DNA of 64,000 nucleotides from a virus. Its lineage: Duplodnaviria > Heunggongvirae > Uroviricota > Caudoviricetes. The notes below the pieces were generated by a model. That model searched no databases and was not told the DNA's origin. It was given only the letters and a program-made list of their open reading frames with translations. The position numbers and the translations under genes are program-made. How positions within the stretch are numbered: position 1 is the first letter of the stretch; each line of letters opens with the position of its first letter. The DNA lies in the IMG/VR virus record IMGVR_UViG_2684623011_000001, positions 53,091 through 117,090 of that record; one strand, given 5' to 3'. Below, piece after piece: positions 10,619 to 62,986 of this stretch.

Positions 10619-11437
10619 ATGAGAATAAATGAGTGTTATCCAGGATTAGAAGTGGGACATTTAACTCTATTAGAGCAGACACGGTTGCAAGTAGCAGGAG
10701 TCAATAGAACAGCCTATAAATGTAGATGTGACTGTGGTAAGTTGGTTACCCGATCAGTATTAAGTTTACATCCAGGGGCACATTGTGGAGCTAGTTTTCA
10801 TAATCGGAAATATTATCACCCAACTGGTATGTCTAAAGAAGATTTTAGAAAAGTTTATACAACTTGGTATAAGATCAGGACAAGATGCGAAGACCCCAAT
10901 GATAAGGATTATAAACGATACGGCGGGAGAGGCATTACCCTATGCGATGAGTGGCATGACCTAAATAACTTTACCAAATGGTATTGGAAGGAAAGTAATC
11001 ATCAGATTCTTCCGCCTAAGGATCAATCTGTGGATCGTATCGATGTTAATAAAGGATACTCCCCATCAAATTGTCGCCTACTAAATGCGGTTGATCAGTC
11101 CAACAACAAACGAACAAATAAAATAGTTGAAATTGATGGAGAAAAGTTAACGTATGCGGAGGCGGCCAGAAAATATAACGTAAAAAAAGATACAGTAAGA
11201 TGGCGTTACCTACATGGTAAAAGAGGATTAGATTTAGTCGACAAGCATCACAGTCAGAGGCATTATTTCGTAATTCACGGACAGGAAATGACGCTTGCTC
11301 AAATTAACGGAGAATTCGATATTCCAATGACGACACTATGGCATTGGGCTAAAAATAATCATGATTCCATCATAATGGAAAAGAAAATACATACATATCA
11401 GGAGGAACATAAATTTGGCAACAAACAAGCAGTTTAA
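10619..11437 (+). CDS. HNH homing endonuclease (HNH_3 type)
   Basis: SVDRIDVNKGYSPSNCRLLNAVDQSNN HNH motif. N-terminal Cys cluster. Confidence 0.75.
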   Translation: MRINECYPGLEVGHLTLLEQTRLQVAGVNRTAYKCRCDCGKLVTRSVLSLHPGAHCGASFHNRKYYHPTGMSKEDFRKVYTTWYKIRTRCEDPNDKDYKRYGGRGITLCDEWHDLNNFTKWYWKESNHQILPPKDQSVDRIDVNKGYSPSNCRLLNAVDQSNNKRTNKIVEIDGEKLTYAEAARKYNVKKDTVRWRYLHGKRGLDLVDKHHSQRHYFVIHGQEMTLAQINGEFDIPMTTLWHWAKNNHDSIIMEKKIHTYQEEHKFGNKQAV

Positions 11438-12566
11438 TTATCCAGACAAAGAAATATACGAATTTGTACAAAAAGAATTACATAAACGTGGTATTACAGC
11501 ATATTCTATTGGCGAAATTGCATACGAAATGCAACATGAGTATTTACCAGATTATGAAATTAGTGATTTCGCCGAACAGTTCAACGAAGTTCTAAAGAAA
11601 CGAGAAGTACTAAACCTTCTTGCGTTCGCCTTTGAATTGGACAATCTTGCTAATAAAGGCGCATTTAGTGAACCAATCCAATCCATTATTGAAAATGATG
11701 CTGGTTTCTGGCAAATCGATGAAATTTTAGCCTCGTCATTGGCTCAATTATTCGGAATGCTTGCGATTACCAATTATGGATATTTAGATAAAAAGAAATA
11801 CGGAATTGCAAAAGCGCTTGATGGGGCGAATAGCATTACTGTATTCTCGGACGACATTGTTTCTGCTCTTGCGTCAGCAGTAATTGGTCGCTGTGGTCAT
11901 GGTTCCAAGCTGGAGCTTGATGACAATACTGTAGAAGAACCTGCTAATGGCGAATTCAGTGAACTCAAGTTTGTGGTAAACGGTAAAGAAGTGGAACCCC
12001 AGGGTGATTTGGTATATTTTGCAAAGCCTATTAAGAGTGATCGCAGGTTACCTAATTGGGATCTAAATAAGTTTGTACATGATTTAGGAAAAGCAATTTA
12101 CGATTCACGGGAACTCGCTGATAGATTAGAAGAAGAATTCAATCATGATTATTATGTCAACTTGGAAGTAGGTATGGACGACGAATCTACTTGGCAACTA
12201 GTAATCGAACTTCTTGATAACAAAATGAAATTAGTTGATGTTATCAATATTGATGTAGACCATTTCCTTGACTACGTATATCTTGAAGTCGATTCGTCTA
12301 GTGAGTTTGTTGACACGGCACAAATGATTGCTCAATTTGTATTTGAACATGACCTATATCCATATCCAGAGGACAGTAACGATTTAGAAGAATCAGATGA
12401 CGAAGACAATGAACTCGATATGAGTGAAATGACCAAGGCACTTGCTGCAATCACCCCATTATTCATGGAACACTTCAACTCATTGATAAAGTCTGGATCA
12501 CTAGACAGTCTAATTGATATGTTGAGTGACAAAGAAGATAATCGAAAGGATGATGCTAATGAATAA
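11415..12566 (+). CDS. highly acidic hypothetical protein
   Basis: 383 aa with long D/E-rich stretches. TTG start 10 nt after AGGAGG. Confidence 0.5.
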   Translation: MATNKQFNYPDKEIYEFVQKELHKRGITAYSIGEIAYEMQHEYLPDYEISDFAEQFNEVLKKREVLNLLAFAFELDNLANKGAFSEPIQSIIENDAGFWQIDEILASSLAQLFGMLAITNYGYLDKKKYGIAKALDGANSITVFSDDIVSALASAVIGRCGHGSKLELDDNTVEEPANGEFSELKFVVNGKEVEPQGDLVYFAKPIKSDRRLPNWDLNKFVHDLGKAIYDSRELADRLEEEFNHDYYVNLEVGMDDESTWQLVIELLDNKMKLVDVINIDVDHFLDYVYLEVDSSSEFVDTAQMIAQFVFEHDLYPYPEDSNDLEESDDEDNELDMSEMTKALAAITPLFMEHFNSLIKSGSLDSLIDMLSDKEDNRKDDANE

Positions 12567-14184: not shown

Positions 14185-15012
14185 ATGAGTAGAATAGTAA
14201 ATGGAGTAGTGATCTCTAAAAATCCGAGCCATGGAAAGCATGAGGTCAAAGATTATAAAGGTAAAGTATTTGGCGAACTTACCGTTGAAGAGTTTGACCA
14301 CAAAGATAAATGCCATAAAGCTGTGTGGCGTTGTATATGTTCTTGTGGGAAAGAATGTTTAGTACGCTCTAATAATTTGCAAAACGGTCAAATAATTTCA
14401 TGCGGACATATAAATCGACAAATGTCCGCCGAAAAAATAAGAAAAGTTAGTACAACTCATGGCGCCAGTAAAGAACCGTGGTATAACAATTATTCTGCAA
14501 TGCGTCATCGGGTAACTAATCCGAATAGTATAGATGCAAAGTATTATACTCATGAGCGTATTAAAGGAAAGCTCATTGAGCAATCATGGCTAGACGATCC
14601 ATGGGAGTTTTTCAAAGAGATTGGTGAAAAACCTGGGCCGAATTATAGTATCGATAGAATAAATAATAATCTTGGATATATTAAAGGAAATGTGCGTTGG
14701 GCTGACAAACATACTCAAACAGTTAACAGAAACACTGATTCAATCCACAAAAGTAAATCAGGTTACCGCGGAATAACACTTATTCCGAAAGGACGTAACA
14801 GACGAGCTCGCGATTGTTATTATGCACGTATTCGAGTTAATGGAAAGGAAATCAATCTCGGCTACTATGAAAAATTAGAAGACGCAAAGAGGGCAAGATA
14901 TGAGGCTGAGACAAAGTTCGGCTATCCTCATACATTCGAGATTTCAGATAAACGTCCAGATATTAATATTCAAATGATATTACAAAGTAATCGCGAAAAA
15001 AGCATTTCATAA
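14185..15012 (+). CDS. HNH homing endonuclease with AP2 DNA-binding domain
   Basis: YSIDRINNNLGYIKGNVRWADKHTQ HNH_3 motif plus an AP2-like GYRGI...YYARIRVNGKEINLGYYEKLEDAKRARYEAE. Confidence 0.75.
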   Translation: MSRIVNGVVISKNPSHGKHEVKDYKGKVFGELTVEEFDHKDKCHKAVWRCICSCGKECLVRSNNLQNGQIISCGHINRQMSAEKIRKVSTTHGASKEPWYNNYSAMRHRVTNPNSIDAKYYTHERIKGKLIEQSWLDDPWEFFKEIGEKPGPNYSIDRINNNLGYIKGNVRWADKHTQTVNRNTDSIHKSKSGYRGITLIPKGRNRRARDCYYARIRVNGKEINLGYYEKLEDAKRARYEAETKFGYPHTFEISDKRPDINIQMILQSNREKSIS

Positions 15013-15121: not shown

Positions 15122-15264
15122 TTTGCTTATTTTTAGTTAAGAAGTGTTATTTGTTTGTAATAACACTTCCTAATTATCGCTATTTTAGCATCTATTTTTA
15201 TGATAAAATAAAGAGGTGTTATAATTCTATATATCAAAAAATAACACTAGTATTAGGTGGTTTT

Positions 15265-15858
15265 ATGAAACAGTTAGTCTTGCCTATAAAAGACTCTTAT
15301 GTGTTATCTGAAGTACAAGATACGTTATTAAATAACTTTAAATCTGGTGTTAGAAATTACACTATTTTCCAAGTCGGAAAGGCAACCTTACTTCGAGTAA
15401 GTGACGTACTCAGATTGAAACAGGAAGATGTCTATGATAAATATGGTGAGGTAAAAAGAAACGCATTTATTAAAGATAAGAAAACGGGCAAGCAAAATAC
15501 ATTGTATTTAAAACCTGTCCGTGAGGATTTAGAGAATTATAAAAAATGGTTAGAAGAAAATAATTATTATCAAACTACGCCCTGGCTATTTCCATCGACT
15601 ACCAGACCAAATAAACATATCGATGAAAGAAGATATTATACGATTATGCATAAAGTTGGAGATCTCCTGGACATTCCATATCTGGGAACACACACCATGA
15701 GAAAGACTGGAGCATATCGAGTTTACGTACAGAGTAATTATAATATCGGATTAGTTATGTCATTACTCAACCATTCATCAGAAGAAATGACTTTGAGATA
15801 TTTGGGGCTAGACCAAGTGTCTCGAGAAAGACTATTAGATAAAATTAATTTCGGATAA
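15265..15858 (+). CDS. small tyrosine recombinase (integrase-family catalytic domain)
   Basis: Start at MKQLVL after an AGGTGG RBS. R (LLRVSDVLRLK) ... GTHTMRKTGAYRVY (H-x-x-R, Y) catalytic signature. Confidence 0.6.
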   Translation: MKQLVLPIKDSYVLSEVQDTLLNNFKSGVRNYTIFQVGKATLLRVSDVLRLKQEDVYDKYGEVKRNAFIKDKKTGKQNTLYLKPVREDLENYKKWLEENNYYQTTPWLFPSTTRPNKHIDERRYYTIMHKVGDLLDIPYLGTHTMRKTGAYRVYVQSNYNIGLVMSLLNHSSEEMTLRYLGLDQVSRERLLDKINFG

Positions 15859-48799: not shown

Positions 48800-48933
48800 T
48801 GCGTCCTCCTTCTTCTGTTGTTTACTAAATTAATATATATTTTTCTTTATCGAAAGTCTATTATTTGACTAAAAAGACATTTAAAGAAAAAAGAGCCCCT
48901 TCGGACTCTCTTCACAATTATTTAATTTTCATC

Positions 48934-50163
48934 TTATACAGTAACGTATTCTGTATACTTCTTATATAGATTAGTCATTTGACGTCTTCTCTTAGCAATG
49001 CCCGAATTACCCTTATAATCCATTATATTTTGGCTATCCATTGGAATCACACCATATTCTCGGAAACACTTATCTATCGCTCGTATGATCGCTATTTTAT
49101 CCGCATTAGCGTTTAACTCTCGTTTTAATTGATTGGCAATATAGTAAACCTCACCACTTCGTCTAATCATATTATAAGTTGGCTTCTTGCCCAATATGTT
49201 ATCTACCTGGCGCATTCTCTTATTAAGGAGAGCCCAAGTTTTGAGAGGTTGTTTTTTCTCCTGTTCGGTTAATTTAGGAGACTCATTTCGGAACACATAA
49301 TCATTTTCAGAGGCACCTTTACACAATCTTCCAATATATCTAGCCTCATCTTCAGCAAGATATATTGTTCTAGGCATATCACCATTTATTGTAATTTGAT
49401 TACCTTTAATATCTCCAACTTTTAACGTTGAAATTTCTTTATTATATTTATTTTCTCGTAATCCTCTAAAGATTAAGACAAAAATAGCTCCAATAGACGC
49501 TGGTTTTCTTTCCATAACCTCTTGGACATCATCTATTGTAACAAAAGGAATTTCTCCATTCGCCAAGGCGGTATTACCATACTCTTGTGTAGCATAATTT
49601 TTTGTCGTCTTTAGAAAAATGTTAATGAATGTTTCATCATAAACTTTTTTACTTTCTGGTAAATATTCTCCAGCGAATTCATGTAATTCTTTTACTAGTC
49701 GCGAAAGCAGATATATTCTGTTATTTGCTGTATATACAGATGATCCTTGTTCTATTTGATTTTTAGCAAAACTAATTATGTCATCTTGATTAAAATTACG
49801 GAACGCTTTATCTATCGATTTCTCTTCTTTAGAGACAATGTTCATGGTTGTCTTGAAAGAAAGTACCGTTGAAAATGGTATTTCTTGCTTTACACAATAA
49901 AATAAGAGTGCTGTTTTCAAATTGTCTTCATATTCAAATTCAGTATTTAATATTTCAGATTTCTCAGTATCAAAAATATTAATCGAAAAGTCCTCATTAA
50001 ACGTATCATTGTTATTTAGCACATTTTTAAAAATAATTTTCTCATCTTGTTCTTCAGAAATAATTTTTTCAGAAGTTAAATCAATGAAATCATTCCCTAT
50101 TAACGCTGTGGTTTTTCTCGATATATTATCTACTTTTTTTTCAATTTCCAATACATATCTCAT
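48934..50163 (-). CDS. tyrosine recombinase (divergent)
   Basis: Box I-like IGAIFVLIFRGLRENKYNKEISTLKVGDI. C-terminal NMIRRSGEVYYIANQL region. Confidence 0.5.
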   Translation of the reverse strand: MRYVLEIEKKVDNISRKTTALIGNDFIDLTSEKIISEEQDEKIIFKNVLNNNDTFNEDFSINIFDTEKSEILNTEFEYEDNLKTALLFYCVKQEIPFSTVLSFKTTMNIVSKEEKSIDKAFRNFNQDDIISFAKNQIEQGSSVYTANNRIYLLSRLVKELHEFAGEYLPESKKVYDETFINIFLKTTKNYATQEYGNTALANGEIPFVTIDDVQEVMERKPASIGAIFVLIFRGLRENKYNKEISTLKVGDIKGNQITINGDMPRTIYLAEDEARYIGRLCKGASENDYVFRNESPKLTEQEKKQPLKTWALLNKRMRQVDNILGKKPTYNMIRRSGEVYYIANQLKRELNANADKIAIIRAIDKCFREYGVIPMDSQNIMDYKGNSGIAKRRRQMTNLYKKYTEYVTV

Positions 50164-50259
50164 TTTACCAAAACCTCTATTTTTCTTACCTAACTTACAT
50201 CGCTGATTATAACAGCAAAAACAGTAAAAACATAGGCTTTTTGTTAAATTTAAAGATAA

Positions 50260-51312
50260 TTAAAAAGTTAAATGAAATTTACTTCCTGTTCTCATAATCG
50301 TATTTTCAATTTCTGGTTGAGAGTGGATAATCATCAATAGTTGTTCTTTTGATAAGTCGTCTATCTTGTCAGCGTCAAAATTCTCTGTTAAGATTGCTGT
50401 TCCCATATGATTAGGATCTTCTTGTTGATGAATATAATTTTCAGTTGTGCTTACACTTTCGTGATCACAAAAATCACGTACCAATAAAATGTCTTTTGTT
50501 TGAGCATATAGAGTCGTAGCAGCCCCCGCTTTTAGTGAGTGAATGACTAGGTGACGTCCCTTCTTTTCACTAAATTGTTTAAAGAAACTTCTTAGGCTAT
50601 GTTGGCTCAATTCATCAAATAATTTTTCATCTTTATTATTTCGATAAAAAATTCTATGCAGCTTATCATAATAAGCTCTAGTTAAGTACTTAGTATTTAA
50701 CTTTGATCCTTTATCAAGAACTTCTAATTGCGCCCAATCTCCACCATACGGAGAATTCATTAAAGTGAAATCACTCCAAGTAATGTTAAAAGTTGCGGTA
50801 ACACGAATTCCTGTTTTGTACATAAAATCAATTAACATGGCATACTTTTCTCCAGCGTTATCCACTTTTGTATTGAAATAATTTTTACCCTTTAACCATT
50901 CCTCCATTTCATTTAAGTCCGTCAGCGAAATGGGTTCATAATGTTCTACATTATTCATGCCCAAACTTTGAACCTTAAAAACATCATTAGAGATTGAACT
51001 CATGTTTAACCCCGGAAAAATTTTCTCTTTACGAATAATGTTTAAGTACGACCGCATAGCAATAAGGTGCGATTTAATAGTAGAATCCTTAATGTCTTTA
51101 TCTCGTAGCGGCTTAACAAATTTATTAATTGTGTCACTATATCGTAAATTCTCAAAATCATCTCTTGTCAGTTCATCTGGTTTTTTACCAAAAACCAGAT
51201 CGCAATATATCTCCACAGAACCAGTATATTTCTTTAACGTATTTGGTGAATTAATAGAATTTTTCCACGTTAAATATGCAACTAATATGTCTTTCATATT
51301 TGAGACCTCCAT
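50260..51312 (-). CDS. tyrosine recombinase / integrase family
   Basis: N-terminal SAM-like core-binding domain. TGIRVTA (R). HSLKAGAATTLY. Signature DHESVSTTENYIH. Confidence 0.7.
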   Translation of the reverse strand: MEVSNMKDILVAYLTWKNSINSPNTLKKYTGSVEIYCDLVFGKKPDELTRDDFENLRYSDTINKFVKPLRDKDIKDSTIKSHLIAMRSYLNIIRKEKIFPGLNMSSISNDVFKVQSLGMNNVEHYEPISLTDLNEMEEWLKGKNYFNTKVDNAGEKYAMLIDFMYKTGIRVTATFNITWSDFTLMNSPYGGDWAQLEVLDKGSKLNTKYLTRAYYDKLHRIFYRNNKDEKLFDELSQHSLRSFFKQFSEKKGRHLVIHSLKAGAATTLYAQTKDILLVRDFCDHESVSTTENYIHQQEDPNHMGTAILTENFDADKIDDLSKEQLLMIIHSQPEIENTIMRTGSKFHLTF

Positions 51313-51441
51313 TATTTTTGCAAATACAAATTTTATAAAGTATAGTTTGCTCTGGGAGATTTAATTTGTTCCATAAAATAGGTATTTCAGAGATATTGAA
51401 TTTGACTTATTTTTAATAAGATTATATAAAATGAGTATACT

Positions 51442-51477
51442 AAAAAACGGAGCCATGTAATATAGCTCCGTTTTTTA
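51442..51477. terminator. bidirectional intrinsic terminator (cggagc ... gctccg flanked by A6 and T6)
   Basis: Read directly from the sequence. Confidence 0.6.
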
Positions 51478-51528
51478 GTGTTTATTCTATAAATATTTTA
51501 ATGGTACTTTATAAAATTTGTATTTTAT

Positions 51529-52125
51529 TTAGTTGATTCTTCCGTTTACTATCTCGTCTAATTTACGAATAGTTTTAGCATAATTTTTTATGTGTAAATC
51601 ATCTCTCTCAGGCCTATATGGTCCCACTATTGTTTTTAGATCATAACGATCTCCTTCATTGGTGGTTACTATTACCCCTAAAGAATCAATCGAATTATTT
51701 TGACCACTACCAGATATCGCTCCAATAATTCCTCCGATTGGTCCAGCAATAACGCCACCTAATAGCGCTCTACCAATAACATTTTTATTTTCACCATGTT
51801 CATACTTATATGGATCATATGATTTGATATCTGTATAAGGAATGTCTGCCCCTGTTAACCTTCCTCCACTGACTTCTTTCTCCACAACTAAATAAGGGTC
51901 TTTACCCGATAGCCAATATTGACCATATTTTTTATTCCCTGCACTTATGGTATCCGAATTCCATTTTGCTCTTTGCTTTAATTCTTCATGGAAATCCCAA
52001 CCAGTTTTACTGTAATCTGGTTCCTCCGGTGCTTCTTTGTCATGATGAGAATCACTTTGTATTTTAATTATCGCCCCAGCAACTATTAATACCCATAAAA
52101 CAATAAATGTAATAATGTATGCCAT
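51529..52125 (-). CDS. membrane-anchored hypothetical protein
   Basis: N-terminal transmembrane helix followed by a soluble domain. Confidence 0.5.
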   Translation of the reverse strand: MAYIITFIVLWVLIVAGAIIKIQSDSHHDKEAPEEPDYSKTGWDFHEELKQRAKWNSDTISAGNKKYGQYWLSGKDPYLVVEKEVSGGRLTGADIPYTDIKSYDPYKYEHGENKNVIGRALLGGVIAGPIGGIIGAISGSGQNNSIDSLGVIVTTNEGDRYDLKTIVGPYRPERDDLHIKNYAKTIRKLDEIVNGRIN

Positions 52126-52548: not shown

Positions 52549-52896
52549 CTATACACAAAAATCATTAATGACTCGGCCGATTTGACGTTTTACCTTATCA
52601 AAATCTTCTAGTCGCAATCTTTCCATTGGTAACGACCTAGCTCTCTCTTGAGAGTAACAATGAATCTGTGTTGCATTAACTCGACCATATATATTTTTAT
52701 AACCATTCAAATTAACATAACCATTAAAACAAGTTCCACCTGATGTAATTGGTACAACCATCAAATAGTTAGTATTTCGATTGTATCGATCGTTAGAAAT
52801 AATTACCGCTGGGTGGATCCCTTCCATTTCTGTGTCAACAGCAGGACTAAAGTCCAAATAAATAATATCTCCTTGCTTGTAATGTACTTTACTCAT
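52549..52896 (-). CDS. MazF/PemK-family endoribonuclease toxin
   Basis: GDIIYLDFSPAVDTEMEGIHPAVIIS...VVPITS aligns with MazF GDLIWVDFDPTKGSEQAGHRPAVVLS...CVPCTT. Confidence 0.8.
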   Translation of the reverse strand: MSKVHYKQGDIIYLDFSPAVDTEMEGIHPAVIISNDRYNRNTNYLMVVPITSGGTCFNGYVNLNGYKNIYGRVNATQIHCYSQERARSLPMERLRLEDFDKVKRQIGRVINDFCV

Positions 52897-53047: not shown

Positions 53048-53398
53048 CTAAATCCTTCCCATTAATTCCAAAACACCTTGTCTAAATTTATTAAAAAACT
53101 TTCTATCCTTATAAGTTAATTCCATTGGTGATGTGTCTACTCCACAGCCACCTGACATGAACTTAGTTAATAAATCTCTTCGTATTTCATAGATTGCTTC
53201 ACTTCTATCAAGTCCATCCGTTAAAAAATCTAGCCATTCTACTCGACATGGAACAGCTCTAATTGCTCCGTTTGGTGCAACTATTACCATATATTCCAAA
53301 CCATTGTTATCATGAGCAAATTGTCCTCGTACACCCAATTCATTACACATAATCTCGAAAAAATTATATTCTTCTTGAATTAATCTTCCTCTATTCAT
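53048..53398 (-). CDS. hypothetical protein
   Basis: 116-aa ORF. Confidence 0.5.
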   Translation of the reverse strand: MNRGRLIQEEYNFFEIMCNELGVRGQFAHDNNGLEYMVIVAPNGAIRAVPCRVEWLDFLTDGLDRSEAIYEIRRDLLTKFMSGGCGVDTSPMELTYKDRKFFNKFRQGVLELMGRI

Positions 53399-54106: not shown

Positions 54107-54436
54107 CTATGACATCTCATAACGATCACGTACAAATCTAATTAACGCCTCAATATCTCGAAGTGATAATTCACCGACAAACTTAAATTTGATTTCTTCT
54201 TTTGATAACTTAGCAATGTTTCCAACATCTACATATGACTGTTTGATAAGTCCTTCTTGATGCCAGTCTTTAAGTGGAAAATAATTTCGTTTAATTTTCT
54301 CTGATTTCCGAGAAAACTTACTCGTTATCTTATAACAAAAAACATTATTTCCCCTATCTTCTATTATTAAAACAGGGCGCCGTTTGCCACTGACACCCCA
54401 TGACACATAAGCCGTGTATATTTCATTAATCCTCAT
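54107..54436 (-). CDS. MazF/PemK/EndoA-like toxin
   Basis: YVSWGVSGKRRPVLIIEDRGNNVFCYKITSK pattern. Start set at MRINEIY, overlapping the antitoxin stop. Confidence 0.65.
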   Translation of the reverse strand: MRINEIYTAYVSWGVSGKRRPVLIIEDRGNNVFCYKITSKFSRKSEKIKRNYFPLKDWHQEGLIKQSYVDVGNIAKLSKEEIKFKFVGELSLRDIEALIRFVRDRYEMS

Positions 54437-54686
54437 TGAAAAATTCCTCAAAATCTTCTTTTGACTTAATCTCTCGAATTGGTACCTTCTTTGATACTTC
54501 TCTTAGCTCAAGCTCCGCTCTTTGTTTGGGCGTTAAGGAAAAGCTAAGTGGAATTCTTCCTGTAGCAACAATTTCTTTATACATTCCATTTATTACAGCC
54601 GTTGGTGTTAAACCAATCTCTTTGATAATATCCTCGGCTGAATGTTTTAACTCTGAATCAATATTAACTTGAACTTTTGAACTCAT
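54426..54686 (-). CDS. DinJ/RelB-family antitoxin
   Basis: VQVNIDSELKHSAEDIIKEIGLTPTAVINGMYKEIVATGRIPLSF matches the DinJ N-terminal region. ATG after a GAGGTG RBS. Confidence 0.75.
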   Translation of the reverse strand: MSSKVQVNIDSELKHSAEDIIKEIGLTPTAVINGMYKEIVATGRIPLSFSLTPKQRAELELREVSKKVPIREIKSKEDFEEFFNED

Positions 54687-57819: not shown

Positions 57820-58068
57820 TCACTCTCCTAAAATTTCTTTTTCTTTTAACTGTTCTACTTTGTACCCAACATTTTCTAACGCTTCAATTGCCTCGGTTAA
57901 TGTCATTTCCAACCCAATTCCAAATGACTCGCCCCACTTGATTAATTCTTGTTCATTAACTCGTTCACGAAATCCATCGCCAGTGTCAATTAAAAATCTC
58001 ACTCTAAAATCACCACCAAAAATTCTTTTAGTATGTCCGAATAGGACAAATTTCACCAATTCCTGCAT
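57820..58068 (-). CDS. hypothetical protein
   Basis: Overlaps the 3' end of the clamp-like gene; start uncertain. Confidence 0.35.
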   Translation of the reverse strand: MQELVKFVLFGHTKRIFGGDFRVRFLIDTGDGFRERVNEQELIKWGESFGIGLEMTLTEAIEALENVGYKVEQLKEKEILGE

Positions 58069-58870
58069 TTTCTCGAATAAAGGTAAATGGTCGTAATGTT
58101 CCACTAAATGAGAACTTTAGAAATTCTGTGCTATCACATTTCTGAACCAATTCAATTAGATACTTCAAATTAAAATTAATTTCAAAATTAAGTCCCTTGT
58201 CATTTTCTACAATATGTTTCTCATCAATAAATAAATTCTTTTGCTTAATTTCTTGAATACTACTGTCGTCGCCATCAACGCCAATAACTACTCCCGAATT
58301 GTCTTGAATTTCAAGACGAACAACATTGCCATACTTTGCATTGGTAAATTTCTTCAATTCTTTTAACACTGGCAATAATTCTTTTTTCCGTGTTTCAAAA
58401 CTGAAGTAAGTACGATCTGGAATTACTCGTTCTAGTTCAGGGTAAAAATCATCGCTGCCATGATTATCAATAAATGTTTCGTTGTTACCGTCAATGAATG
58501 TGACCTTACCAACTGACCGTCCATTAGAATTAAATTCCGGCTTAATAAGTAAATATTCCCCGTGTTTTGTCGGTGTCTTAGATAAGTTTTTAGCAAACTT
58601 TCCATCAACCAAAAATTCTTTACTAGATAACTCAGATGGAATACTTGCCCCCACCTTTAAATACGTCAATTTGTGTGAATCCGTTGCGCCAAGGACCAAT
58701 TCATTCTCATTAATACCCACATGAATGTTCATTAGTGTTGGCCGGGACTTCTTCGTGCTTACACCAACCGTGACGAACCTAAGAGCTTTCAAAAATTCTT
58801 TTGCGTTTACAATAATTGCGTCGTTGTTTGTAGTAGTTGCTACGTTGTTTAATAGTGTTTGTGTATTCAT
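58028..58870 (-). CDS. possible sliding-clamp (DnaN-like) protein
   Basis: N-terminus FLKALRFVTVGVSTKKSRPTLMNIHVGINENELVLGATDSHKL resembles the DnaN N-terminal pattern (ILsnvLl...l.ltaTD). Confidence 0.4.
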   Translation of the reverse strand: MNTQTLLNNVATTTNNDAIIVNAKEFLKALRFVTVGVSTKKSRPTLMNIHVGINENELVLGATDSHKLTYLKVGASIPSELSSKEFLVDGKFAKNLSKTPTKHGEYLLIKPEFNSNGRSVGKVTFIDGNNETFIDNHGSDDFYPELERVIPDRTYFSFETRKKELLPVLKELKKFTNAKYGNVVRLEIQDNSGVVIGVDGDDSSIQEIKQKNLFIDEKHIVENDKGLNFEINFNLKYLIELVQKCDSTEFLKFSFSGTLRPFTFIRENAGIGEICPIRTY

Positions 58871-62461: not shown

Positions 62462-62986
62462 TTATAAGTTCTCATTCTTAAATTCTTCGATGATTTCACT
62501 TGCATGATTGTTAAGCATTTCTTGATAGTCGTATTCGGTCATGCTTTCACAATTACCGCAACCGTTAATAAAGATGTAACGGTCAAGCCAATTGTGAATA
62601 TCGCCAAAGAACACGGCTCGCGCTACTTCTTGCTTACTAGCAAACATCGTGTCGAAGAATTCATCATCAAAGTCGTATACGTCCTCGCAACCGGTTGCTT
62701 CACGATCGTCAAGGGCGTTGTATACGTCCTCAATGCTGTCGTAATCTTCAAGTGCTTCGGCCAATTCATTCAGAGCGTATAGGTTGTCGTATTCATCAAT
62801 CTTGAAAGGTGCTTCATAATCACTGATAAACCATTCATCGTGGTAGCCGTGCTTGCTATCACCGCCCAGGTCTAACTTGTCCAAAATATCCTTGTTTACG
62901 TCATCAACTGGCAAAGTTGTCCATTTTCCAGTAAGTTCACCATCGTTGTACTTCGCTAAGTTTGATACAAATACTTTAATTTTCAT
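62462..62986 (-). CDS. hypothetical protein
   Basis: 174-aa ORF. Confidence 0.5.
   Translation of the reverse strand: MKIKVFVSNLAKYNDGELTGKWTTLPVDDVNKDILDKLDLGGDSKHGYHDEWFISDYEAPFKIDEYDNLYALNELAEALEDYDSIEDVYNALDDREATGCEDVYDFDDEFFDTMFASKQEVARAVFFGDIHNWLDRYIFINGCGNCESMTEYDYQEMLNNHASEIIEEFKNENL

Follow-up and report, generated by a model that had tools for sequence, protein, structure and literature searches.

Organization of the locus

The genes and sites described here lie within a 64,000-nucleotide stretch of DNA, hereafter the window, from the IMG/VR virus record IMGVR_UViG_2684623011_000001 (positions 53,091 to 117,090), and center on a gene for a YopP/SroD-like tyrosine recombinase, a second gene directly downstream that encodes a recombinase look-alike related to YopR/MrpR/SroF, and a short DNA segment upstream of the first gene which occurs in nature in both orientations (Table 1). 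A first-pass annotation of the sequence had reported three tyrosine recombinases, and the corresponding open reading frames (ORFs) of 409, 350 and 197 amino acids (aa) are indeed found at the positions it gave; the recombinase fold holds for all of them, whereas the catalytic chemistry does not hold for the 409-aa protein, the active site of which is degenerate.

The intergenic region upstream of the recombinase gene is bounded by a perfect inverted repeat (21/21 nt; 0.05 chance matches expected at up to 3 mismatches), which delimits a unit of 204 bp (51322-51525). The two arms enclose the whole intergenic region, including a hairpin, and the proximal one lies 25 nt before the recombinase start. 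The unit has no second copy in the window and shows no target-site duplication.

The orientation of the 162-bp segment relative to the recombinase gene was compared across forty loci, namely the window itself and those plasmid records and contigs (given as L numbers where needed) in which these proteins are encoded too. Orientation A, that of the window, occurs in 30 of the 40 and orientation B in the other 10, two of which are complete plasmids, and the breakpoints fall inside the arms. Between L012 (A) and L013 (B) the outer arm halves (AAATACAG on the left, AAACACAA on the right) are fixed with the flanks and the inner halves change sides along with the segment; since the outer halves stay and the inner ones move, re-insertion of a mobile element is excluded and a crossover within the arms is indicated. 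Segment types 1 and 3 each occur both ways round, which requires two independent inversions at the least. Comparison of these natural variants shows that the 204-bp unit, read here as an inverton, has flipped repeatedly in nature. A scan of metagenomes for the type-1 B-state junction gave 0 matches, and a second scan added one further A-state locus. One contig (L017) begins precisely where the proximal arm borders on the segment, the picture expected of an assembly bubble, which is only a hint that both orientations coexist in one population.

Table 1. Features of the window discussed in the text, in window coordinates
Feature	Position	Strand	Basis or remark
YopP/SroD-like tyrosine recombinase, 345 aa	50260-51297	-	ORF readable from 51312 as 350 aa
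Inverted-repeat arm, recombinase-proximal, AAATACAAATTTTATAAAGTA on + strand	51322-51342		perfect 21-nt inverted repeat
Inverted-repeat arm, distal	51505-51525		4 nt past stop codon of upstream ORF
Invertible segment, 162 bp	51343-51504		window in orientation A
Internal arm-like box AAATACCTATTTTATGGA within segment	51370-51387	-	fuzzy matching to arms
Promoter-like element P	51402-51432	+	TTGACT/TTTACT; TATAAA after 17 nt or TAAAAT after 19 nt
Hairpin inside segment, bidirectional terminator-like	51442-51477	both	folding
YopR/MrpR/SroF-like recombinase-fold protein, 409 aa	48934-50163	-	N-terminal extension of ~80 aa
Extended -10 TGTTATAAT	50206-50214	-	in 96-bp spacer between the two genes; conservation
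Terminator hairpin and U-run, 3' of the 409-aa gene	48886-48913	-	-15.3 kcal/mol, z -2.65
Small tyrosine recombinase, catalytic domain only, 197 aa	15265-15858	+	PF00589, phrog_216
Core-type palindrome AAGTGTTATT-TGTTTGT-AATAACACTT	15142-15168		~100 nt upstream of small recombinase
Perfect 9-6-9 palindrome TTTATAAAA-TACATA-TTTTATAAA	59724-59747		best member of its family
Other 9-6-9 family members	10089, 18381, 20609, 24482, 32788, 43146		and both switch arms
PemK/MazF-type toxin genes, two	52549-52896, 54107-54451	-	just upstream of recombinase/repressor module
Transfer-messenger RNA (tmRNA), full-length	31944-32321	-	Rfam 74 bits vs 47; tag peptide ANNHRVTALAA
tRNA-like genes, seven (Rfam)	within 31550-35573		four by ARAGORN: Ile-TAT, Tyr, Trp, Arg-TCT
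ArdA antirestriction gene	62462-62986	-	heads long array of small co-oriented ORFs, common to small plasmids
Sliding-clamp-like protein	58028-58870	-	
HNH endonuclease	14185-15012	+	adjoins small recombinase
ORF with N-terminus matching phosphatidylglycerophosphatase A	11415-12566	+	

Contents of the invertible segment

The hairpin that the first-pass annotation described as a bidirectional terminator is borne out by folding (-23 to -25 kcal/mol on either strand, z score -8 to -10) and is symmetrical, with A6/T6 flanks and a stem that covaries among the variants. Its role is not that of a simple insulator of the gene pair; the hairpin belongs to the invertible cassette. In the window orientation the element P points away from the recombinase gene; it has the top position weight matrix (PWM) score of the region in all variants that keep it and is conserved, and on these two grounds is regarded as promoter-like. 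A PWM scan of orientation A found no convincing gene-strand promoter for the recombinase. The T-run beside the hairpin in the direction opposing P is uninterrupted (T5-T7) in every variant, and the run in the direction of P is interrupted (CATTTTATT) in most of them, the window having T6 on both sides. In plasmid pLM1 of Limosilactobacillus mucosae, which lacks the switch, a plain TTGACA-17-TACAAT promoter stands at the same position.

The two states also differ in their integrity. All five B-state lineages are damaged, whereas arms and P are intact in 5 of the 8 A-state lineages (Fisher p ~0.04; a small sample). The damage consists of deletion of P (L002 type), deletion of its -35 element (L008), insertion of an IS200/605 element (pAN417A) or divergence of the arms by 4-5 mismatches (L010 and L013).

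Variation in and around the switch

Within the hairpin, the loop and the mismatched stem positions (window 51448-51471) are flipped between variants that are otherwise co-oriented: over 48 nt L035 and L036 are exact reverse complements of each other, and relative to L003 the loop of the window is reversed. These flips look like template switching at a quasi-palindrome or a nested inversion. The switch region is also a hot spot for insertion sequences (IS), with IS200/IS605-TnpB elements in or beside it in at least three lineages (L004 10556-12336; L014 1-410; L038 657-1712; L039 1-301) and IS3 and IS30 elements in its place in L001, L005 and L011. The gene directly upstream (51529-52125, minus strand, in the window; same position in L007, L009 and L012) varies between conserved flanks and encodes a 198-aa glycine-zipper membrane protein, a 204-aa protein, a 331-aa SHOCT protein or a pair of 219 and 65 aa, or is missing. 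The idea that the SHOCT gene is a cassette shuttling between two recombinase sites was rejected, the two SHOCT genes having no DNA similarity.

An equivalent switch is absent upstream of the yopP homologues of pLM1, SPR, Sundance and phage 949. Geobacillus virus E3 carries a 31-nt inverted repeat (90% complementary, 136-nt spacer; L041 3233-3263/3400-3430) in a gene-free gap of 1.2 kb, ~500 bp upstream of its yopP homologue GP148, which may be an analogous inverton in this single genome; in one Staphylococcus SPbeta-like phage, again a single genome, a 28-nt repeat with a 47-nt spacer lies upstream of the yopP homologue. The gene pair also occurs in a distant lineage, of which three independent assemblies (L052, L053 and L054) end 139-172 nt upstream of the recombinase, and within their first 170 nt two different sequences meet at the same point beside a terminator hairpin (…ATTT|TATAAATTGAA vs …AAGC|TATAAATTGAA), a junction that may be another recombination site. 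A literature search for invertons in Limosilactobacillus reuteri returned nothing relevant.

The YopP-like recombinase

The 350-aa ORF (50260-51312, minus strand) contains the signature DHESVSTTENYIH that the first-pass annotation had noticed in it. Translation probably starts at M6 (ATG at 51297), giving a protein of 345 aa; this start is favored because the first ATG overlaps the ribosome-binding site GGAGGT (51305-51310) and because RefSeq plasmids annotate 345 aa. The protein matches Pfam PF00589 (2e-13, 50.9 bits against a gathering threshold of 27.1), and its SAM-like N-terminal domains also exceed the Pfam threshold. Its relatives found by tblastn (22-27% identity over 90-99% of the query, E 1e-11 to 3e-15) are encoded by phages of ~130 kb that infect Bacillota (SPbeta-type phages, Geobacillus E3, Brevibacillus Sundance, Lactococcus 949-type phages and SPbeta-like phages of Staphylococcus and Mammaliicoccus); a search of the GTDB representative genomes found no relative. 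The active-site residues R165, K196, H253, H279 and Y288 are in place, and the protein is the sole catalytically plausible recombinase of the pair.

Neither the 345-aa nor the 409-aa protein reaches an NCBIfam cut-off for Xer, integron or invertase families. The best score of the 345-aa protein against the equivalogs XerC, XerD, XerS and XerA is 65.5 (cut-offs 220-335); against the integron integrase model TIGR02249 the score is 16.5 (cut-off 265).

The 409-aa look-alike

Searched as a single sequence, the 409-aa protein matches nothing in Pfam, PHROG or NCBIfam, nor in phage genomes by tblastn, and an exhaustive search of 1.8 billion cluster representatives yielded only 16 matching proteins. 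A family profile made from 13 distant relatives finds archaeal XerA structures, which it matches over their catalytic domains (E 4.6e-8 and 2.8e-7); the Pfam model MrpR_N_CB (PF22822) is matched by 6 of the 13, though not by the window protein alone, and PF00589 by 2. For the AlphaFold model (predicted local distance difference test, pLDDT, 80), Foldseek ranks the DNA-bound SroF of phi3T, the SroF-Sar complex, XerA, SPbeta MrpR, YopR and Cre, with probability 1.0 for 9rd5 (SroF), 8a0a (MrpR), 8bj6 (YopR) and XerA. Profile alignment with hhalign relates the family to YopR of Bacillus phage SPR (93% probability, E 2.7e-7, 223 columns), to E3 GP146 (92%) and to the Staphylococcus SPbeta-like homologue (86%), and gives no match to YopQ and no profile similarity to the neighboring 345-aa recombinase (probability 0.1%). 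Profiles and predicted structure together show that the protein has the core-binding and catalytic-type fold of tyrosine recombinases and is homologous to YopR/MrpR/SroF.

Conservation in the 13-member alignment is confined to E243 and the two arginines, Arg I (R236, replaced by Lys in most relatives) and Arg II (R334). The positions of the catalytic Lys (N260) and of His II (N331) are variable, and no column of Tyr is conserved, most relatives having F at Y384 and Y/F/S/L/H near the C-terminus. From these substitutions and its homologues the protein appears to be a YopR-type, non-catalytic DNA-binding regulator or repressor that has lost the recombinase chemistry. MrpR/YopR, which has lost recombinase activity, represses SPbeta through the repeated element SPBRE (PMC10516654), and SroF wraps an asymmetric 26-bp box as a monomer (bioRxiv 10.1101/2025.11.27.690993). 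The gene probably has its own promoter, because an extended -10 (TGTTATAAT) is conserved in the spacer that precedes it, even in lineages in which the 409-aa protein is just 74% identical. Plasmids of the I5007 type retain this gene without the recombinase.

A yopP/yopR-type module

Genes for a ~440-aa and a ~330-aa protein follow that of the recombinase in Bacillus phage SPR, in E3 and in the Staphylococcus phage, a trio known in SPbeta as yopP-yopQ-yopR (PMC8612738). The window has no yopQ (ParB-like) gene between the two genes, just a 96-bp spacer. A yopP-like gene lies upstream of and co-oriented with a yopR-like gene in SPR, E3, the Staphylococcus SPbeta-like phage, pLM1 and L052, and the order recombinase, look-alike, deoxynucleoside monophosphate kinase, Sak4, Mre11 and YorH is kept in pLM1 and in L052, a lineage at only 27% identity. 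Because the gene order holds in both, the pair constitutes a conserved module. By sequence and gene order it is a new, yopQ-less member of the yopP/yopR type, outside Bacillus and on a plasmid; the sro operon had been reported as unique to arbitrium phages of B. subtilis (PMC8612738). The cited SPbeta and phi3T literature gives no function for YopP, which is not the SPbeta integrase, that role belonging to SprA (PMC8612738, PMC10516654). The PemK/MazF-type genes of the window may not be near the module by accident, by analogy with phi3T, in which the host MazF belongs to the arbitrium/SroF circuit (bioRxiv 10.1101/2025.11.27.690993).

Dispersed palindromes

Each arm of the inverton can be read as a core-type site in which the 6-bp spacer TACAAA separates an outer element, which is imperfect, from the inner element TTTTATAAA. 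The pattern TTTATAAAA-N6-TTTTATAAA (a 9-6-9 palindrome) recurs across the window, with 9 sites at up to 3 mismatches (0.9 expected) and 7 at up to 2 (0.08 expected), the expectations being drawn from local shuffles that preserve composition in 50-bp blocks; the pattern was derived from three of its sites, so that only the other six are independent. No other palindrome family recurred as often in an unbiased scan. Gene starts, probably among them the true one of DnaB, follow the sites at a distance of 20-120 nt. Since this arrangement resembles SPBRE and the SroF box, an operator role is proposed, in which the palindromes would be bound by the 409-aa protein. The best site, 59724, is weakly conserved in plasmid pLr03, and no claim is made for it as a recombining site.

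The small recombinase

That the third protein consists of a catalytic domain only, as the first-pass annotation had it, is confirmed by PF00589 (7e-19, 68.7 bits), which matches over this domain alone; in PHROG it matches phrog_216 (2e-37). R, K, H-x-x-R, H and Y are all present and the core-binding domain is absent. Its family is common in temperate phages of Streptococcus and Clostridium, and the protein stays below the Xer models (best 43.3; cut-offs 220-335) and the FimB/FimE-type model NF007370 (18.6; cut-off 221). In addition to the core-type palindrome upstream of the gene, more GTGTTAT half-sites overlap its extended -10 (15215-15224). In pAN417A both palindrome arms are changed together (ACGTGTTATT-ATTACAA-AATAACACGT), and because of this covariation the site is considered to be protein-binding. 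Gene and site are retained in stripped-down plasmids. Related plasmids (L042 46077-46664, L043 13613-14200) have, beside a DUF262 gene, a second, paralogous small recombinase that is absent from the window and ~66% identical to 15265-15828 at the nucleotide level.

Some plasmids and phages have single-site recombinase systems, examples being Cre/loxP of P1 and XerS/difSL. The small recombinase resembles them in that its gene lies next to one palindromic core with arms of ~10 bp and a 7-bp spacer, and differs in lacking the core-binding domain and in scoring far under the Xer and FimB/FimE model cut-offs. By this analogy its role is most likely single-site multimer resolution with autoregulation.

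The source element

The description of an otherwise lytic-looking genome in the first-pass annotation proved wrong. Proteins of L. reuteri (on contigs of up to 139 kb) share 96-100% identity with the 409-aa protein, and the window DNA matches L. reuteri plasmids of 52-98 kb, every one in replicon cluster 2483, which encode RepA, RepC, a ParA-like ATPase and ParM. The window carries phage-type genes that are missing from the smaller plasmids, namely those for DnaE, ligase, DnaB, a RecD-like helicase, Mre11-like and Sak4-like proteins and a YorH domain, as well as tmRNA and several tRNAs. Its DnaE is ~37% identical to that of large Bacillus siphoviruses and of 132-kb phages of Clostridioides difficile. 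No virion gene and no arbitrium gene were seen within the 64-kb window, and megablast of both recombinase regions against 50,697 phage records gave no match. By protein and DNA identity the source is a family of L. reuteri plasmids with an SPbeta-like replication and recombination module, possibly a phage-plasmid. Passengers of these plasmids include histidine decarboxylase, metal resistance and restriction systems.

A proposed switch and its alternatives

The reading put forward here, to which we assign a probability of roughly 0.6 as a whole, combines a yopP/yopR-type module, an inverton operated by the YopP-like recombinase, a regulator and a separate small recombinase. In orientation A the recombinase gene would be OFF, with P directed the other way and the strong side of the terminator stopping read-through from the upstream operon; in orientation B, P would face the gene and turn it ON. 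An intact switch in B would then flip itself back to A, the resting state. Inversion is most likely carried out by the adjacent 345-aa recombinase at the two 21-bp inverted core sites; this protein is the likeliest invertase because it adjoins the switch and because the other recombinase has a distinct site. Among the readings of the first-pass annotation, the invertase system has support at the 345-aa gene, with a repeat-bounded segment immediately upstream of it that occurs both ways in nature. The 409-aa regulator, expressed from its own promoter, would probably bind the dispersed 9-6-9 palindromes as operators, and the 197-aa recombinase, which has a palindromic core site to itself, would work apart from the switch in a single-site system, most likely for multimer resolution. 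The generalization that YopP-type recombinases are promoter invertases, acting here on operator-like core sites common with a recombinase-fold repressor paralogue, is more speculative and rather unlikely to hold as it stands.

Several observations weigh against this scheme. At the Arg II position the 345-aa protein has K256, where XerA and XerH have R in the alignment, and Lys in place of Arg II weakens well-studied recombinases. After inversion the hairpin, which in the window is a good terminator both ways, falls between P and the recombinase gene, so the ON state may be weak or need antitermination, and the promoters are predictions in AT-rich DNA. No closely related loci that differ in orientation were found: the recombinase genes of the closest A/B pair are 95.5% identical, and all four samples with the exact allele of the window are in A; rapid phase variation is therefore conjectural. 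As regards the regulator, its presumed motif is palindromic, whereas the SroF box is asymmetric and bound by a monomer (bioRxiv 10.1101/2025.11.27.690993), and small derivative plasmids retain the gene pair yet lack the phage-like genes that a repressor would control.

The Lys at Arg II, together with the size of the 197-aa recombinase (that of FimB/FimE), its complete catalytic set and its retention with the switch in small plasmids, could also mean that the switch is real and flipped by another enzyme, either this recombinase or one of the host, leaving integration, resolution or some other job to the 345-aa protein. This is unlikely: the covarying palindrome and GTGTTAT half-sites of the 197-aa recombinase are unrelated to the TTTATAAAA arms, invertase genes usually adjoin their switch, and the alignment that places Arg in E3 GP148 has Lys in SPR YopP too, hence this residue is taken as a family trait. 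About equally improbable is a passive unit, inserted either way like a miniature inverted-repeat transposable element or flipped rarely by RecA, with no dedicated recombinase and no regulatory role. Such a unit would suit the uniform orientation of near-identical strains and the frequent IS hits at this spot, but it occurs just once in the window and lacks a target-site duplication, all lineages have it at the identical position, the movement of the inner arm halves past fixed outer ones fits a crossover inside the arms better than re-insertion, at least two independent inversions are required, 21 bp is short for homologous recombination, and within the cassette the promoter-like element is conserved, as is the structure of the hairpin.

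The annotation of the 345-aa protein ("site-specific integrase") and its matches to the integrase families phrog_1 and phrog_216 speak for a conventional temperate-phage integrase that would use a repeat arm as its phage attachment site (attP) for chromosomal integration. With complete records that are circular plasmids with RepA/ParM, SprA rather than YopP as the integrase of SPbeta (PMC8612738, PMC10516654) and sites that form an inverted pair around a 162-bp segment, this is very improbable, and the three proteins are not all canonical phage integrases with attP, nor is the element lytic. The active XerC/XerD-like pair envisaged in the first-pass annotation, resolving plasmid or phage multimers at a single site, would account for tandem genes that both have the recombinase fold and for the need of large low-copy plasmids for multimer resolution. 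It is largely refuted, since the family of the 409-aa partner lacks a conserved Lys, His II and nucleophilic Tyr and shares no profile similarity with the neighbor; its best homologues are the non-catalytic YopR/MrpR/SroF, the NCBIfam Xer cut-offs are missed by far, the sites are an inverted pair instead of a single dif-like site, and the I5007-type plasmids hold the 409-aa gene alone.

Implications

If the more speculative generalization on YopP-type recombinases holds, the dormancy/repression module of a phage-derived plasmid would be coupled to a heritable inversion of DNA, adding a layer of DNA inversion on top of a switch of the lysis-lysogeny type. Detailed study of the integrase-fold repressor of SPbeta/phi3T dates only from 2021 onward. 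The recombinase and look-alike pair is a conserved module in plasmids of Lactobacillales. With its 204-bp inverton, polymorphic in nature, the locus offers a first concrete substrate on which a YopP-type enzyme can be tested, and the 9-6-9 sites are candidate operators of the look-alike. L. reuteri serves as a probiotic and as a model organism of the gut, and through the traits that these plasmids carry a heritable switch on them may affect the behavior of strains.

Comparison with known systems

The sro operon of SPbeta/phi3T encodes YopP (SroD), YopQ (SroE) and the master repressor YopR/MrpR/SroF, which has an integrase fold (PMC8612738; PMC10516654; bioRxiv 10.1101/2025.11.27.690993). The window shares with it an Xer-like recombinase gene followed by a co-oriented one for a recombinase-fold protein with a degenerate active site, the vicinity of SPbeta-type replication genes (DnaE/YorL-like, YorH), a DNA motif repeated across intergenic regions, as SPBRE is in SPbeta, and a MazF gene near the pair, MazF being part of the phi3T circuit. 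Unlike sro, it lacks yopQ, and its look-alike of 409 aa is extended at the N-terminus and retains both arginines; it resides in Limosilactobacillus on a RepA/ParM plasmid, with no arbitrium genes seen in the window, and the motif is a 9-6-9 palindrome instead of an asymmetric 26-bp box. The window also has an invertible cassette upstream of the recombinase gene, whereas none is reported in the cited SPbeta literature.

Invertons of tyrosine recombinases, such as fimS of Escherichia coli (FimB/FimE) and the cwpV and flgB switches of C. difficile (RecV), consist of a segment of 150-300 bp between short inverted repeats, with a promoter and/or terminator inside. The switch of the window is like them in its short inverted repeats, in a segment with a putative promoter and a terminator-like hairpin, in the recombinase gene that adjoins it and in the occurrence of both orientations in nature. 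It is unlike them in that the gene directly downstream is that of the recombinase itself and not of a surface structure, that the recombinase is full length (core-binding and catalytic domains) and of the YopP type, that inversion is seen here between loci only, and that the arms resemble dispersed operator-like sites. The unit is an inverton of a known, fimS- or RecV-like kind in a new setting, upstream of a YopP-type recombinase, next to a putative recombinase-fold repressor and with operator-like arms.

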